From the IMG/VR virus record IMGVR_UViG_3300014202_000240, positions 1-26,788 of that record: 26,788 nucleotides of DNA. One strand, given 5' to 3'. The translations under genes were made by a program, and so were the position numbers. The stretch is from a virus (Duplodnaviria > Caudoviricetes). Below, piece by piece: positions 6,095 to 23,796 of this stretch (positions are counted from its first letter, which is position 1; each line of letters starts with the position of its first letter). Under the pieces are notes generated by a model that saw nothing but the letters and a program-made list of their open reading frames with translations, made no database searches and had not been told where the DNA came from.

Positions 6095-6105
6095 ACAGTT
6101 GTTAA
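6095..6105 (-). promoter_or_regulatory. TTAACAACTGT motif, putative late promoter
   Basis: Overlaps the TAA stop of the endonuclease gene; upstream of the fibre cluster. Confidence 0.65.
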
Positions 6106-7493
6106 TTTGAATAAATCAATTTAACTTTACCACAATCCCAAATCCTTGATAATCCATCTAGGGTAGCGTGTTGTAGTTCAGTCATACCCAAAGGAGTATT
6201 AACTACGTCTTTTCTTCTTGATTGTTTACTAAGTACTTGTTTTTTATAAGTATTATAATAGAAATAGTCTGGAGGTATTATGTAATCTAACTTCCAACCA
6301 GCTTTTATCCAATTATCCTCGTTCGTCCAACGATAATCTATAAAGGTAGAAAAAGCTCCATGTATTTTGTAAGCATATGAACATAATTTAGATAGACCAC
6401 CGACAACATTTACTCCAGATTTCATAACAAATCGACTCAAAGTTAGCTCTGAACTATCTCGATGGTGTTTAGAAATAACAATAAGACCTTGTAATTCTTC
6501 GTTATGATATAATCCATACGACTTAGGAGCAATATATGTGTCTAGTATATGGTATCTAGATAGAAATTCTCTAGCTTCTAATGACTCAACTTCTCTAACT
6601 TCACAGTTTCTAGCGTATATTCGTTCAGTATTCTTATGTAGAGCTGATTTTATAAAAGATTTAACTTGGTTTTTCTTCTTTTTCCATTCAAAATCAAAGA
6701 ATTGTAATAACTTATAGCCACGTTCTTTAGCTTTTTGACGTTTTAGATTATGATACTCACGCCCTACTCTGTCTTCTGTATGCCACATACATCCATGATA
6801 CTCAATTCCTATACCTAATTCAGGGATAAATATATCTATTTCATGAGGATGTATTATACTTCTACTATTTCTTACAACTTCAAATCCTAAACTTTCAACA
6901 AAACTACATAATTCTAATTCTTCACTAGAACCAACATAAGATAAAACATCTCCATATTTCTCTATTAAAGCAAAAGTTCGTTCAAATATAACTCCAGTTC
7001 TATCTTTCCATTTATACTTCCTATCTTTTCTAGTATATGTATCTGAAAGAAATTCTGCTCCTTTTGATCTAGCAAATTCCTTCACTTCTTCTATTGTTAA
7101 TGATGTTTTTAATTGACTTAACCTTTCTTTTTTTTCATGAGGAGACCATTGACCTCCAATAATAGAATCCCAAGTCTTTTCAAAGTATCTACCTTTAGAA
7201 TCTAACCATTTATACTTAGCTTTATTTCCAATATATTCAGTAGATAAACACTTACCTCCTTTAGACTCTGCCTTTTTGTGTAACATTTCTATTGTGGTAG
7301 TTGTTAGCTTTTGTTTTTTAACTTTAGCTCCATGCTGTTTTGACCAGCGACCACTTTTAATAGAATACCATGCAGCATACCATTGATTACCGTCTGCATC
7401 TTCCCATAAGTATTTATGGTGAGAGTTCACATAAACATCAGAAAGACATTTACCTCCTTTGGATTCTGCGTGTTTTTTCAATTCTTCTATCAT
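6102..7493 (-). CDS. Hef-like free-standing homing endonuclease (N-terminal repeats, Vsr/PD-(D/E)xK-like nuclease, GNAT-like C-terminal domain)
   Basis: Three SKGGKCLSxxY-type repeats; EIDIFIPELGIGIEYHGCMWH; IYARNCEV...LSRF...VVGGLSKL...RIWDCG. Confidence 0.75.
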   Translation of the reverse strand: MIEELKKHAESKGGKCLSDVYVNSHHKYLWEDADGNQWYAAWYSIKSGRWSKQHGAKVKKQKLTTTTIEMLHKKAESKGGKCLSTEYIGNKAKYKWLDSKGRYFEKTWDSIIGGQWSPHEKKERLSQLKTSLTIEEVKEFARSKGAEFLSDTYTRKDRKYKWKDRTGVIFERTFALIEKYGDVLSYVGSSEELELCSFVESLGFEVVRNSRSIIHPHEIDIFIPELGIGIEYHGCMWHTEDRVGREYHNLKRQKAKERGYKLLQFFDFEWKKKKNQVKSFIKSALHKNTERIYARNCEVREVESLEAREFLSRYHILDTYIAPKSYGLYHNEELQGLIVISKHHRDSSELTLSRFVMKSGVNVVGGLSKLCSYAYKIHGAFSTFIDYRWTNEDNWIKAGWKLDYIIPPDYFYYNTYKKQVLSKQSRRKDVVNTPLGMTELQHATLDGLSRIWDCGKVKLIYSN

Positions 7494-15106: not shown

Positions 15107-17115
15107 TATCCCATTGTCCTTGGTTCTAGATTTGGATTAGGTAATAAACTTGGGTCTACGCTAGGTTGATCTGGTATAGATGCTTCTGCAGGAGCTTGAG
15201 GCCCCATGTTTTGTTGTCCTAGTACCTCACCAGTATTACCTTGTTCTAGACTTGCTTGTTGAGGGCCGGGAGGCATTTCGGGATTACCTTGTTGATCCAT
15301 AGGATTTAAAGGTTGTTCGTTAATTAATTGTAGTAGGTCTGGATTCACATTTCGAAGCATATCAATATGTTCTTGAATATGATTTTGTACTTTAGATAAA
15401 AGTTCTGGATTTTGTCTAAGTTCTGGATCACTAATTACCGCTCGGTGTTCCATGATATGCATTCTATGCTGATCTAGAATATTAGCAAATACATCTTTAC
15501 CTTCAAGTAACCATTCGTTTTCACGTTTGATTAATAGTAAGTCAGCCATATCACCTTCGAACATTGAATCTAATCTACCGGTCTCCATAACCATAAAATA
15601 TTGTTGTGGATTTTTAAGTAGGTTCATCTGAGCCAATTGTTGAGCCATTTCAACACGACCAGCAATTGTTCTAGATAATGGATTACCAACATCAACGACA
15701 ACTCGTTTAATGTCTTTAATCATATCACCTTTAAATTCTTTAAGAAGTGATTTTTTATTCTTTCCAACTAAAGTAATAAGCTTAGGAGTATCAGCAAAGT
15801 CTTTAAGAATTTCAATAAGAGTTGTTCCAATATTTTCTAAGAATGTAACATATGACTTTTGGAATCCGGATTGAAACTGTAGTGACATAGACTGTACTAA
15901 AGCTAATGCGTTTCCTGAACGTAAGGATGCTTCTGGATTACCTCTTGTTACAGAGTTTACACCAACTTGAGTTTCAGCTAATTGCTCTAAAACTTTAACA
16001 AAATTAAATACTTCTGGAGCAGTAGATGTTAATTGAACTGCCTCTGGTTTAGCGTTACCTTCCATGATATTCATACCACCTTCAACTGAAGCGATATTTA
16101 AATCAGAACCTCTAGGAACAAAAATACTTTGTACCATGAAAGCGTTTTGATTTGTCATAATACCAGAGTATAAAGAGTTTAATGCTTCTTGTAAAGGGAA
16201 TACATCAAACATATCAGTATATCCATAAGGAGTTCCCATGATATTAGCAGGAGCTAATCTAAATATAGGGATCGTTCTGTATGGAAGATCGAAATCTATT
16301 AGTATAATCTCTGGAGTAATAAACTGAATATATCTACCTTCTGGTAGAGCTTCTGACCTTTTATGATAGAATTCATAAACCATAATGTCATCAGTATCAT
16401 CGTTAGAAAACATTCCAAGTTTAGTACTTGAATAATTATTCTTTGGTTGAATTTGAGCTAACTTATCTGCATATTCTGGATACTTAGCAATTAGATTATA
16501 CTTATTAATTGCTGTTCTAGTTAGAATCCATTCATGATTCCATCTTTCTTTAGTGCCATCGACAACCACATCTAAAGGACTTAGAATAGAAAATTCTAAT
16601 TCTCCTTCATGATTTGGTTCATTTGTTTCTGGATCGTAATCGTAGATTTCTCCAGCAGTTGCATTCCATCCCATTTTAATATAAGACGAACCTAAAACAA
16701 TCGCCATTTCAACAGCTTCGTTTACTGCTTCTTCTAATCCCTTTTCTCTCATATAGTAATCAAGAATACCGTTAGCTAGGTATGTTTGAGACATTGATTT
16801 AAAGTCTGAATTGACAGCTCTAGCTTCCATAATAGGTCTATTCGCTGTAATCATATTGTAGATATTTCTAGCTAAGTTTCTGAAATGGTTAACTGGTAGT
16901 TTTACAAGTTCACCCTGTTCACCAGCAAAAGTAATTTGATGATCGCTATCTAGTCCATGGTTAAAGTTACCATAGTAGAAGTGATACATATCTGTAATCT
17001 TCTTTAAATACGAGTTTGATCTCATTGTATTAAAGAATGATTCACCTTTCTGTAGTAAATTAGATGTACATTTTTTAGCCTCTTGGGCTGCAAAGTAAAC
17101 TTGACTATCCGACAT
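15106..17115 (-). CDS. Portal protein
   Basis: 669 aa, downstream of terminase; GSSYIKMGW, PYG..DVFPLQEALN, GVNSVTRG; Pro/Gln-rich tail. Confidence 0.85.
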   Translation of the reverse strand: MSDSQVYFAAQEAKKCTSNLLQKGESFFNTMRSNSYLKKITDMYHFYYGNFNHGLDSDHQITFAGEQGELVKLPVNHFRNLARNIYNMITANRPIMEARAVNSDFKSMSQTYLANGILDYYMREKGLEEAVNEAVEMAIVLGSSYIKMGWNATAGEIYDYDPETNEPNHEGELEFSILSPLDVVVDGTKERWNHEWILTRTAINKYNLIAKYPEYADKLAQIQPKNNYSSTKLGMFSNDDTDDIMVYEFYHKRSEALPEGRYIQFITPEIILIDFDLPYRTIPIFRLAPANIMGTPYGYTDMFDVFPLQEALNSLYSGIMTNQNAFMVQSIFVPRGSDLNIASVEGGMNIMEGNAKPEAVQLTSTAPEVFNFVKVLEQLAETQVGVNSVTRGNPEASLRSGNALALVQSMSLQFQSGFQKSYVTFLENIGTTLIEILKDFADTPKLITLVGKNKKSLLKEFKGDMIKDIKRVVVDVGNPLSRTIAGRVEMAQQLAQMNLLKNPQQYFMVMETGRLDSMFEGDMADLLLIKRENEWLLEGKDVFANILDQHRMHIMEHRAVISDPELRQNPELLSKVQNHIQEHIDMLRNVNPDLLQLINEQPLNPMDQQGNPEMPPGPQQASLEQGNTGEVLGQQNMGPQAPAEASIPDQPSVDPSLLPNPNLEPRTMG

Positions 17116-17864
17116 TAGTATACCTCTAAAAATCTTTTTAAGTGTCTAAGTGGAACTAAGTAAGCATCGTCAACAACTCTAGTAGAGCCTGCAAATAAAA
17201 CACCAACAACATTTCCATATTTATTAATAACCGGACTTCCAGAGTTTCCTCCGTAGCTAGTTACAGAAGCTTGCATCGAATAATAAGATTCAACACAAAT
17301 TCCTTCTATATTATAAAATTCTTTTAAAAAATCATTACTTATCCAGTTACCCTTACATGTACTTTTATCATAACCAGATATTAATTCAATAACTTGATTA
17401 CCGATATACTCACCTTTCTTCACAACTAAAGGTCTTAGATTTGGATGTCCAACTAAAACAATATCTTCACCTACATCAACTGAAGAAGCAATATCTAATC
17501 CCTTTTTACCTACAATAGGTTCTACTAAACATAAATCATGATCTTCATATTTTTGGATAATTCTTCTTGGGATTGGTCTAGGAAGACTGGATGATGAAAC
17601 ATCGACGTATCCGTCTTTAGAGATTTCACAAACATGTCTATTTGTTACAATATACACAGTTCCTGATTTAGCTTTGACATGAAATCCAGTACCGCCATTT
17701 ACTCTACCACCGTTATCTTTACTAATCATAACAACTTGATCACCAGTACTATACCGATAATAAGCATCTTTCAGATTAGGAGCAGAAGCTACAAATCCAA
17801 AGACCACAATAGTTGCAGCGACAGTTTTTACTAATGATTTCAACTTTTTAGCTATCTTGGACAT
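17115..17864 (-). CDS. Trypsin-like (S1) serine protease with N-terminal hydrophobic anchor/signal
   Basis: Catalytic triad motifs TNRHVC, HDLC, GGNSGSP; GTGF; N-terminal VAATIVVFGFVA. Confidence 0.9.
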   Translation of the reverse strand: MSKIAKKLKSLVKTVAATIVVFGFVASAPNLKDAYYRYSTGDQVVMISKDNGGRVNGGTGFHVKAKSGTVYIVTNRHVCEISKDGYVDVSSSSLPRPIPRRIIQKYEDHDLCLVEPIVGKKGLDIASSVDVGEDIVLVGHPNLRPLVVKKGEYIGNQVIELISGYDKSTCKGNWISNDFLKEFYNIEGICVESYYSMQASVTSYGGNSGSPVINKYGNVVGVLFAGSTRVVDDAYLVPLRHLKRFLEVY

Positions 17865-20677: not shown

Positions 20678-20940
20678 TATAGCTCCTTGTATATTCTATA
20701 GTAATTCAAGAATACTGGAACATTATTAACCTTACAGTATTCAAAGTAATCCTCGAATTGTTTCTTTAACGTAGGCTTTATATTCTCTAACTCTGAATAC
20801 TTTTCGAATAAGTCCTTTTCTGCAATAACTAATGTTTCTATATCCATATGTGGGTTTCTTATAACTTCGGCCAAATCATAGATATCAGACAAGATATTAT
20901 TTAAGGCTAATATATTACTATCACAAACTGGATTGTTCAT
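20677..20940 (-). CDS. Hypothetical protein
   Basis: 87 aa, coupled to its neighbours. Confidence 0.6.
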   Translation of the reverse strand: MNNPVCDSNILALNNILSDIYDLAEVIRNPHMDIETLVIAEKDLFEKYSELENIKPTLKKQFEDYFEYCKVNNVPVFLNYYRIYKEL

Positions 20941-21133
20941 CTCTGTCCTTCTTTCTAAGCTTACGCATATTAGATTTAGCTTTTAATGCTTGACAGTCCG
21001 GACAAGTTCTTCCATTCCACATACGATTGTGTTCATCAACCCATCGTTTGTTTCTATCATCAAACATACCATCTTGAGTTCTTGTTTTAATAACCTGACA
21101 TAATTTACAGGTAGCTAAGTTTGTTTCTTTCAT
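20921..21133 (-). CDS. Small zinc-finger protein
   Basis: CKLC...CPDC with a basic tail. Confidence 0.7.
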   Translation of the reverse strand: MKETNLATCKLCQVIKTRTQDGMFDDRNKRWVDEHNRMWNGRTCPDCQALKAKSNMRKLRKKDRDEQSSL

Positions 21134-21546: not shown

Positions 21547-22086
21547 TCAGTACATAAGAGCTATTCCTTTATTACTTTTCTGTATTAGCTGTTTCGTTTC
21601 ATTATTACAAGCGTATACAGGATAGATGTACTTGCTAGTATAATTCTCTATTACGAAGGTATTAGCTTCTTTAATCGTATTGAATACTCCTACTGGCTTA
21701 TACTCATAACGTTTATTTACTAAGTATACGATTACATACTTACAGTCGTAAGTTACTCTTGTTACCACTTTATATTCTAGTGGCGGTCTTGTTTCTATAT
21801 ACTCTTTATATCCTAATTCTTTAAACTTGTCTTTCCAATACTGAACATGTAGTTTACGTGTTTCTATATCTTCCATTACTTCTAAAACTTCTATTTGAAG
21901 CTTATCAAAGTCTTTAATCATCTCTTTACATTTGAATGTACCTATGTCTAATTCTTTCAGAATAAGGTCTATTGCTGTTAAGAATCTACTAGTCTGACTG
22001 ATGTATATCTTTTTACTAGAATCGTTTCTAATGGCGTATATTACGCTTTTAGGAAGGTGTTTTAATTCGTTTAATAATGACCTCAT
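21547..22086 (-). CDS. Degenerate GIY-YIG nuclease-fold protein
   Basis: VIYAI...KIYISQT...IEVLE; SD GAGG. Confidence 0.55.
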   Translation of the reverse strand: MRSLLNELKHLPKSVIYAIRNDSSKKIYISQTSRFLTAIDLILKELDIGTFKCKEMIKDFDKLQIEVLEVMEDIETRKLHVQYWKDKFKELGYKEYIETRPPLEYKVVTRVTYDCKYVIVYLVNKRYEYKPVGVFNTIKEANTFVIENYTSKYIYPVYACNNETKQLIQKSNKGIALMY

Positions 22087-22192
22087 AATAGCCTCTTTAA
22101 CGGGTAGTAATAATACCTATACTAAGATATAGGATGGTGTAAAACAACGTAATACAAGCCTAATACAGAGCTTATAGAAGGGTTATACAAGC

Positions 22193-22203
22193 ATAGTTGT
22201 TAC
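22193..22203 (-). promoter_or_regulatory. Variant late motif GTAACAACTAT
   Basis: One mismatch to consensus, ~107 nt upstream of the GIY-YIG-like gene. Confidence 0.4.
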
Positions 22204-22364
22204 AATATTAAACTTGATATTAGTAAGTGAGTGTAATTAGGTAGGGTTAATGATTTTGTATATTTGAGAGGTGGTGAAGGTGAATGTTTCTATATTTAGA
22301 ATAGTTTATAGGATGTGTAGACCATGGACACCTTTGTCAGCTTTGATTGTCCCATACCCCCCTA

Positions 22365-22472
22365 ACACACACGCATTATACCCGCACGCAGGTTTTAACG
22401 CACACGCATACGCACAGGCGCACGCACCTACGCACACACACGCATCACGGGTATCTAACGCACGTACGCACG
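22365..22472. repeat. CGCA/CA alternating purine-pyrimidine low-complexity tract
   Basis: Twelve CGCA copies in ~100 nt within an AT-rich genome. Confidence 0.85.
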
Positions 22473-22547
22473 TTTCAACTATCTTTAAAACATCGCTTGA
22501 CCAACTATCAGGCACTTAGCTCTAAGCTATTGATATCTAATACGGTG

Positions 22548-22594
22548 GTGTCATAACGATACTGGATAGTGTCACATTGACTATACTGGTGTCA
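22548..22594 (+). repeat. Three GTGTCA direct repeats at 21/20-bp spacing
   Basis: Copies start at 22548, 22569, 22589. Confidence 0.7.
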
Positions 22595-22658
22595 TACTGC
22601 ACCTACGAGGTTTCAATGGGTTATACGATGTACTACGTGATTACGAGGGGTTATAGAG

Positions 22659-23096
22659 TTGGCATGGGCTATGCAATACCACTAAACAGAACGGTTGACG
22701 GTAACGTGTTGACTCAACGCACTTGATGCAATGAGTTGGCACGCTACTTGCTACAACCAAAACAGTGATTGACCACGATACAATGTAATTTTTACAACGT
22801 ATCTTGTGACATTACTGAACTGCTGGTAACATCAGTATGACGGTATCTGATAAGCTTAAATGATACGTAGCGGTCGTTATACGACGTGCTTAATATCTAG
22901 TAGCAATCGTGATTATGTCTGATAAGTTGGCACGCTATTTGAAATGTAAAAAACGAGATTCAACCGACAAGTAAAAACGAGTTGGCATGAATCTTGAAAC
23001 AAAGAAAAGCAGTAATGCTGACAAGCGAAAGTGAGTTGGCACGAATCTTGAAAAGGAATTTAAGAGATAAGCAATCAAGTTGGCATAGGAATTGCT
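22659..23096 (+). promoter_or_regulatory. Array of six sigma-54 (-24/-12) promoter-like sites
   Basis: TTGGCAY sites with GG-N10-G[CA] at 22659, 22736, 22927, 22982, 23036, 23080; the 22736 site TTGGCACGCTACTTGCT is perfect consensus. Confidence 0.8.
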
Positions 23097-23105
23097 AACA
23101 AGATT

Positions 23106-23486
23106 GTAGGTGAAATCGAACACCTTACCAAAAAATACGATAGACATTTATTAAAACTAACAACGTGTCCGATCGAGCCGTAAACTCGATAAGCGTTGCC
23201 CTAAGTCTAAGAAGTTCTCTCGGGGTCGGAGTATTGAGAAGAAGTGAGCACCAAATAGGTGTGAGCTGTATAAGAGCGTAGGAATCATATTAAGCAACTC
23301 CACGCACGTCCACTTATACAGTATTAAGCGAGTTACGTGTAGCCGCCTCTTGTAGTATTACGCTACAGTTGTGCCATGACCGCCTGACAAAAAATCAGGG
23401 ATAACCGCCGAACTCAGTATCGCTAAGGCGTGAACCATTAGGTTAGACGAACAGTCTTTAATTCCGAGATGATCGGGTACTGAGTA
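23106..23486 (+). ncRNA. Putative large structured RNA / early leader
   Basis: Raised GC, no convincing ORF, more than ten consecutive helices including a five-way junction. Confidence 0.6.
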
Positions 23487-23571
23487 GAACGAAACAGACA
23501 TTTAGCCCTAGGCGTAATGCGTCTAAGGGCTATCTGTTTGTCGATAGGTATGTGCCTATCCTGACGAGTTC
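23487..23571 (+). ncRNA. Type II hammerhead ribozyme, predicted cleavage after GUC at 23542
   Basis: Stem II GAAC/GTTC; GAAA 23491-94; stem III CAGACA/TGTTTG; UC 23541-42; stem I GATAGG/CCTATC; CTGACGA 23561-67. Confidence 0.9.
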
Positions 23572-23583
23572 AATGAGGTTTAT

Positions 23584-23796
23584 ATGAAATATAGAGATGT
23601 ATCTAAACCTAAAGTAAAAAAGCCTAAGTTAAAACAAATACATAGAGTAGTAATAGAGTCTGATGACATTGAGGTCATTGAAATGATTCTATCGAATTTA
23701 AAGTATATGTACGTGGATTATGAGGCAGATGAACTTGATTTAAAGATAAACAAAATTGTCGATAATCTTAATATAAAAACAATACAGAGGATATAA
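23584..23796 (+). CDS. First early hypothetical protein
   Basis: SD GAGG 23575-78. Confidence 0.75.
   Translation: MKYRDVSKPKVKKPKLKQIHRVVIESDDIEVIEMILSNLKYMYVDYEADELDLKINKIVDNLNIKTIQRI

Follow-up and report, generated by a model that had tools for sequence, protein, structure and literature searches.

Six tandem sigma-54-type elements heading a phage early region: probable enhancer-dependent promoters

To transcribe their early genes, phages normally rely on the housekeeping holoenzyme of the host, since this enzyme requires no trigger. What role, then, is played by six tandem sigma-54-type −24/−12 elements that stand at the head of a phage early region? The locus that raises this question lies in a 26.8-kb stretch of viral DNA (26,788 nucleotides; hereafter, the window), which represents approximately 31% of the phage genome, the genomes of relatives measuring 75–95 kb. 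According to PMC3844500, the sigma-54 holoenzyme forms a locked closed complex and needs an AAA+ activator positioned approximately 70–150 bp upstream, sometimes much farther. In the current study, we describe the elements, their counterparts in related phages, the DNA on either side of them, and the readings that these features permit.

The array is located in a gene-free divergent gap, with the late block (terminase, portal, capsid, and M15 endolysin; − strand) on one side and, on the other, a run of small + strand genes, mostly without family, which begins at 23584. The first late-side ORF (21547..22086, −; 179 aa) is GIY-YIG-like and served as the synteny anchor, and the first early ORF (23584..23796, +; 70 aa, no family) opens the run of small genes. 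The latter ORF is cleanly missing from close relatives in three runs (a 215-nt skip), so that the hammerhead described below then precedes the second ORF. Two further genes of the − strand were recorded: a trypsin-like protease gene between terminase and portal (17115–17864), conserved in contigs L001 and L002, and a 463-aa homing-endonuclease-like gene (6102–7493) situated right after the capsid gene. A conserved boundary (22357..22471) separates the late side from the control region, consisting of a poly-C tract (22357–22362) and then ACGCAC low-complexity repeats (22363–22471). Of 17 non-redundant regions, 12, the window included, have the tract approximately 200–270 bp upstream of this ORF. 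Contigs L259, L261, and L393 start at the tract or within 10 nt of it, and contigs of close relatives cross it; the poly-C/ACGCAC stretch is a candidate genome end or packaging region. The word TATAGAAAC occurs seven times in the window, six of them on the late (−) strand (at 22294, 21868, 21799, 21156, 20842, and 223), with one copy 23 nt ahead of the ORF at 20921–21133; the control regions of relatives often contain its complement. The word is a candidate late promoter. A scan of the + strand from 22086 to 23583 for sigma-70-like promoters returned none, the scan being near chance level in these regions, and Rfam and tRNA scans of the whole window gave nothing over threshold.

The preliminary description of this DNA had listed six sites, and all are present exactly as claimed, as 17-mers on the + strand starting at 22659, 22736, 22927, 22982, 23036, and 23080, each preceded by RAG, with spacings of 77, 191, 55, 54, and 44 bp and with A in place of C at −12 in three of the six (elements 3–5). 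Element 1 (22659..22675, +; C at −12; predicted +1 near 22686) is the closest of the six to an enhancer-like array upstream, and element 2 (22736..22752, +; C at −12; predicted +1 near 22763) shows the full consensus. The A-type sites follow as element 3 (22927..22943, +; A at 22942; predicted +1 near 22954), element 4 (22982..22998, +; A at 22997), and element 5 (23036..23052, +; A at 23051), with element 6 (23080..23096, +; predicted +1 near 23107) again carrying C at −12. The combination of GG at −24 and TGC at −12, with 10 bp from GG to GC, is exact in elements 1, 2, and 6, and elements 3–5 read TGA. The extended sigma-54 consensus, which we take to be Y at −21, R at −20, T at −15, and W at −11, is matched by all six elements at the first, second, and fourth of these positions and by five of six at −15, where element 1 has A. 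The GG/TGC core itself is the one given for sigma-54 promoters in PMC3844500.

On both strands of the window, these six are the sole matches to TTGGCA-N7-TG[C/A]; in 500 dinucleotide shuffles, the same pattern occurred 0.22 times on average and at most twice, versus the six occurrences observed. All six elements point toward the early genes, with at least 44 bp between neighbours, and their middle bases vary, as do their spacings (44–191 bp). Four of these spacings had earlier been read as near multiples of 11 bp, a pattern that proved weak, with a phase vector of 0.21 at 10.5 bp/turn and a best value of 0.87 near 11.1 (p ~0.05 against jittered spacings). Helical phasing is not established; the spacings of other viral arrays peak at 47, 54, 45, and 26–28 rather than at multiples of 11 bp.

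Related phages were collected through the terminase, for which 1892 homologues were found among 7999 scored candidates. An alignment of 50 terminase sequences led to 80 viral, 79 metagenome, and 1 GTDB loci; of 161 loci with a terminase match, 68 had at least 4.5 kb upstream, the other 93 being too short and left out, and 42 of the 68 were non-redundant. Across these 42 relatives, TGGCAY-N6-TGC points toward the early genes in 47 cases and away from them in 14, and late-side DNA of the same length contains 3 copies; altered spacers of 4, 5, 7, or 8 give no more than 4 matches per class. Thus, the motif is specific in spacing, strand, and position. A forward site is present in 23 of the 42 relatives, 12 of which have at least two, and the remaining 19 have none within the DNA examined, which indicates that the phage family does not rely on the sigma-54 route throughout. 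The extended consensus positions are also biased among 89 early-side GGCA-N7-TGC sites (C/T at −21 in 77, A/G at −20 in 78, T at −15 in 59, and A/T at −11 in 81), and a ribosome site with ATG follows within 95 nt in 14 of 33 isolated sites, against a background of 18%. Among close relatives (contigs from four lake-water runs), none of 30 substitutions falls in the 60 core bases (p ~0.03). The earlier proposal that sigma-54-type elements head the early region is supported.

A search of IMG/VR for the tandem pattern returned approximately 1500 stretches versus approximately 700 with a shifted-spacing control; triplet spacings characterize 106 of 122 control loci versus 62 of 122 real loci, so the control consists mostly of coding repeats. 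Dense two-way clusters of sigma-54-like sites, 16–60 bp apart, adjoin the poly-C tract in L302, L353, L367, L378, L249, L256, and L003; the sites are often paired in inverted orientation on either side of a short run of G or C, and none of 19 carries the IHF word discussed below. Many arrays outside this phage family are also dense and two-way. A simple promoter model fails to explain these clusters, which may form a second class with another role, to which the window does not belong.

Upstream of element 1 lie three phased palindromes (22546..22605), with centres at 22555, 22576, and 22596, corresponding to −131, −110, and −90 from the predicted +1 of that element. They follow a word that we call motif B, G(T/G)(G/T)NCA-N3-TGN(C/A)(A/C)C, with a 21-bp period, and are predicted to be an enhancer (UAS) for a host activator. 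The best three window matches to a motif-B matrix are those at −90, −110, and −131 (scores of 19.0, 14.3, and 18.7; next best 9.6), the matrix having been trained on five relatives with a seed and training set picked after the window had been seen, so that these scores are no blind test. The five training relatives carry motif B in 21-bp-phased rows between −68 and −217; outside the training set, rows precede one promoter of L268 and, by eye, are present in four of seven contigs of the IMG/VR scan. A quick terminase tree (41 rows, with two short rows left out) groups all six B-type phages in a single clade of 12 rows. Across IMG/VR, motif B next to a site is not enriched (7 versus 9 control stretches), and motif B matched none of the Desulfovibrio activator sites with which it was compared. 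Two placements of these features were recorded separately: in L273/L491 (G009), a motif-B row sits between divergent sigma-54-type sites, one early-facing and one late-facing, and the ACGCAC repeats, whose length varies in close relatives, are present in contig L301 and ahead of motif-B rows in L488–L490.

A second word, motif A, occurs in several relatives. In an unbiased dyad count over 26 hand-picked upstream regions (24 from relatives and 2 from the window), TGTC-N9-GACA ranked first, occurring in 6 of 26 regions against 0.08 expected, and was refined to TGTCWA-N5-TWGACA, i.e., TGT-N11-ACA, centred at −66 to −179. Motifs A and B share a TGTCA half-site, with a gap of 7 bp in A and 3 bp in B. 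The PilR-type form of motif A, TGT-N11-A(G/C)A, is absent upstream of element 1, and the best motif-A score in the window is 9.9, below the training range of 10.8–22.3. When either motif is counted in the 42 non-redundant relatives, 18 phased pairs lie on the early side and none on the late side. Of the 23 loci with a forward site, 7 have such pairs, versus 0 of the 19 without (p 0.011, uncorrected for relatedness). Across IMG/VR, motif A accompanies a site in 46 versus 14 stretches (36 versus 10 unique), many of them within reading frames.

IHF-type sites complete the upstream region. With WATCARNNNNTTR as the consensus (PMC7962754), a head-to-head pair of exact matches (22506..22535; 22506–22518 on the + strand and 22523–22535 on the − strand) lies upstream of the palindromes and is conserved in L301, and an IHF-like site with one mismatch (22611..22623, +) lies between the palindromes and element 1, the same word being found before promoters in relatives; a more degenerate copy ends at 22653. 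Among 33 isolated sites of relatives, 5 are preceded by an IHF-like word at a distance of no more than 25 nt, versus 0.24% of random windows. Activator sites approximately 70–150 bp upstream with IHF in between constitute the textbook sigma-54 layout (PMC3844500, PMC2709558), although not every such promoter has the IHF site.

The history of the array is illuminated by L301, whose terminase is 57% identical to that of the window. Its control region has the same order as the window, namely poly-C, ACGCAC repeats, a head-to-head IHF pair, four B palindromes, and then a single promoter, AGTTGGCA...TTGAA, which has A at −12, stands directly behind the enhancer layout, and aligns with element 1. 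The word GACAAG follows the predicted +1 after 10 nt in L301 and after 12 and 11 nt in units 3 and 4 of the window, respectively. The 34-bp near-duplicate noted previously in units 4 and 5, which contains elements 4 and 5, was confirmed at 85% identity, and one close-relative contig lacks one 54-bp unit (that of element 4), indicating that copy number varies. Because of this identity and the missing unit, the three adjacent A sites are probably copies of one another, and comparison with L301 suggests that one promoter, together with its transcript start, was copied in short duplications to give the array. In L249 (at 6954) and L327 (at 7067), sigma-70-like pairs on the − strand stand where sister phages have a sigma-54 site. 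These pairs, with 8 of 12 (L249, below the scan cut-off) and 7 of 12 (L327) consensus matches, are followed by a similar leader word, and by eye they hint that lineages may switch between sigma-54 and sigma-70 promoter classes at the same place.

Downstream of element 6, a structured non-coding leader is predicted (23107..23486, +; fold z −4.5 for the 477 nt of 23107–23583). It ends in a predicted closed four-hairpin fold (23412–23486, +; z −3.6 for 23410–23490), for which tRNA and Rfam scans gave no call and which lies directly before a predicted type II hammerhead ribozyme (23487..23571, +). The predicted structure has the hammerhead core sequences CUGANGA and GAAA, a UH cleavage site, closed stems I and III, and an open stem II, type II being defined in PMC3088659. 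The ribozyme lies 13 nt ahead of the start codon of the first gene, and its predicted cleavage point follows C23542. This is the single descriptor match in the window with both strands scanned (fold z −5.2), and it has a long stem III insert; the Rfam model RF02276 did not match 23487..23571. Its location on the + strand would imply rightward transcription. In relatives, the descriptor gave 24 matches in 13 of 42 loci, one of which looks spurious, all on the early strand upstream of the terminase and none elsewhere, and a forward sigma-54-type site lies upstream in 11 of the 13 hammerhead-bearing relatives, the exceptions being L327 and L254. RF02276 matched two of the nine relatives' loci scanned (L268 and L277). 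Type II hammerheads between phage genes are known, and PMC3088659 suggests that they process long phage transcripts.

A search for a phage-encoded enhancer-binding protein or RpoN, proposed at the outset, was carried out in 20 relatives, 12 of which are at least 90% complete. No match over the cut-off was obtained for PF00158 (activator domain) or PF04552 (DNA-binding domain of RpoN), nor for PF04542 (sigma-70 region 2) or PF02954 (Fis-type HTH); one sub-threshold PF00158 match was found in G009. A GAFTG-like word was considered and rejected: the single one in four relative genomes and the G009 locus lies in a glycine-rich stretch. The relative G007 encodes two classic AAA ATPases in its middle region (L414:6366–7346 and L414:15133–15987), neither with a GAFTG loop; HicA-family and Mom-family genes were also recorded in this genome. 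Pfam searches of 132 early and middle proteins of two relatives revealed no sigma factor and no polymerase, and a T7-type polymerase was not found in the 20 relatives by a search that had no positive control. Since none of the four domains passes the cut-off in the 20 relatives and the G007 ATPases have no GAFTG loop, the activator is probably a host protein.

As to which host, the earlier suggestion of a Bdellovibrionota-type bacterium receives weak backing. The nearest named phage is a prophage of Silvanigrella aquatica, the only named match for capsid and portal and the best for terminase, which speaks for such a host; the identity is only 30–34%, however, and the prophage has no such sigma-54 array. 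A GTDB terminase scan yielded one 4.2-kb contig with 42% identity in a Flavobacteriaceae MAG, into which a phage contig may have been mis-binned. Neither plasmids nor cluster members nor the atlas pointed to a host, and the polymerase and endolysin matches are distant and taxonomically mixed.

Taken together, the sequence comparisons lead us to regard the six elements as probably enhancer-dependent sigma-54 early promoters that have been expanded to six, and the role of tandem promoters, one of those first proposed for the array, appears the most likely. The extra sites could instead act as a sponge or roadblock, holding sigma-54 or its holoenzyme as locked complexes that titrate it or gate read-through, with one site or none initiating. 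According to PMC4551910, sigma-54 can repress through DNA occupancy, and elements 3–6, at 360–510 bp from the three upstream palindromes, have no palindrome row of their own. Dense two-way clusters with 18–19 bp spacings, found in relatives and in unrelated viral contigs, also favor this role: given the footprint size of the sigma-54 holoenzyme, they are too tight for several holoenzymes. However, the six elements of the window are one-directional and no closer to each other than 44 bp, a sink of only a few sites per genome would be small, and units 3 and 4 have the conserved leader word GACAAG past their predicted +1. In addition, three of the sites have the non-consensus A, whereas repressive sites retained C in PMC4551910. 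A pure sponge would also leave the enhancer, the strand bias, and the downstream leader unexplained, and we consider this role unlikely. The 17-mers might also be mere look-alikes of the sigma-54 consensus that serve a phage protein as operators, iterons, or packaging sites, a reading that gains from the partial dyad symmetry of the 17-mer and from the position of the array 300 bp from the conserved poly-C tract where several related contigs begin, IHF being used in packaging and replication as well. Against it, the motif is asymmetric: a palindromic operator would require C after TGC, at −11, and C is found there in only 4 of the 89 early-side sites. The middle bases are free to vary, single sites occur kilobases from the tract, right before ribosome sites and genes, and the six elements are neither near-identical direct repeats at a fixed period nor true palindromes. 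Such a role is very improbable.

Two variants of the promoter reading concern the activator. The preliminary description had raised relaxed activator dependence for the −12 A sites, and in its full form this would mean that the three sites fire with no enhancer-binding protein and start infection unaided. According to PMC4551910, C at −12 is conserved in 96% of promoters and restrains basal transcription, and the known bypass promoters cited there have a non-consensus −12; the A sites of the window are, moreover, slightly richer in A/T from −11 to −1 (9–10 of 11 positions versus 8 of 11 at the C sites), and the −12 A is unchanged in the close relatives compared. Yet bypass in vivo was rare and required sigma-54 without region I, as PMC4551910 also states, and A is found in just 5 of 54 forward sites of relatives. 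The array also stands behind a phased enhancer-like array with IHF-type sites, and L301 shows the same enhancer layout, with four palindromes and an IHF-type site immediately ahead of its sole promoter, itself A-type. These observations speak against the claim, and we hold activator bypass to be very unlikely. The least probable of all, and highly unlikely, is a phage-encoded or virion-borne activator with the palindromes as its sites. Such a gene could lie in the 69% of this genome outside the window, G007 shows that a relative can encode two AAA ATPases, and motif B is restricted to a single clade of the terminase tree. The missing GAFTG loop of those ATPases and the lack of PF00158 matches over the cut-off in 20 relatives weigh against it, as do the motif-B rows before a site in L488–L490, which have no protein match to the window in 3-kb flanks.

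The preferred reading, enhancer-dependent tandem promoters, has parallels in known systems. The promoters A1–A3 of phage T7 likewise head an early region in tandem and are read by host polymerase; being of the sigma-70 class, however, they work without an activator. Bacterial promoters of the nifH, glnHp2, Pu, and pspA types have the same fixed-distance GG/TGC, with palindromes 70–150 bp upstream and an IHF-type site between, for which the window has a one-mismatch candidate (PMC2709558 and PMC3844500 for the bacterial promoters). The window differs from them in its phage setting ahead of the early genes, in having six tandem elements per upstream array, three with −12 A, and in having no adjacent activator gene. 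TGT-N11-AGA is named in PMC6058289 as a hallmark of PilR, associated with sigma-54 control of the type IV pilin gene, and motif A of several relatives (TGT-N11-ACA) resembles this hallmark; the window, in contrast, carries motif B, with a 3-bp rather than 7-bp gap and a 21-bp period. Pseudomonas phage YuA is likewise a lytic phage with a host sigma-54-type promoter, P015, which is one promoter among many; the passage on it in PMC10914365 mentions neither a tandem array nor an enhancer or a ribozyme leader. The predicted hammerhead shares its core, permutation, and between-gene position with known phage type II hammerheads (RF02276; PMC3088659), from which it differs in its long stem III insert, unscored by RF02276, and in its place behind a sigma-54 array. 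In the literature covered, which included few subscription journals, the YuA promoter was the only phage sigma-54 promoter found, and no tandem or enhancer-wired early promoters came to light. The parts are known, but we found no account there of their use to launch lytic infection in combination with a ribozyme leader and a new enhancer word.

From the palindromes and IHF-type sites, through the six elements on one strand, to the structured leader and the small genes, the order of the parts is conserved in relatives, and from it a course of events can be proposed. Host sigma-54 RNA polymerase would bind the six tandem early promoters, and a host enhancer-binding protein on the three predicted upstream palindromes would trigger it through an IHF-bent loop; as the phage appears to bring no activator, it would borrow that of the host. 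An ancestral single promoter, as in L301, may have been multiplied by short duplications, such that several polymerases could be pre-loaded under one enhancer, and the resulting transcript would be cut by the hammerhead just ahead of the first gene. The A at −12 may tune binding or melting while the need for an activator stays. Such tuning is more likely than activator independence, since bypass was rare in vivo and seen with truncated sigma-54, A is infrequent in the sites of relatives, and the A promoter of L301 stands behind a full enhancer.

If this reading is correct, the early promoters of a lytic phage would be locked until a host ATPase activator fires, which would tie infection to host physiology with neither a repressor nor a phage sensor. 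We tentatively extend this, at somewhat less than even confidence, to a large lytic phage family that gates the onset of infection on a host two-component signal, with early genes expressed only while one specific host activator is switched on. Lineages of this family would have exchanged two types of enhancer and a sigma-70 promoter at one and the same place, and the present lineage would have multiplied its promoter, such that one enhancer discharges queued, pre-loaded sigma-54 polymerases. The enhancer word would offer a route to the host, as the same word is expected upstream of the genes that make up the host regulon. With both C and A represented at −12 behind a single enhancer, the array would constitute a natural test of how this base affects activator dependence, and six promoters sharing one enhancer would likewise provide a test of whether tandem closed complexes queue or block.
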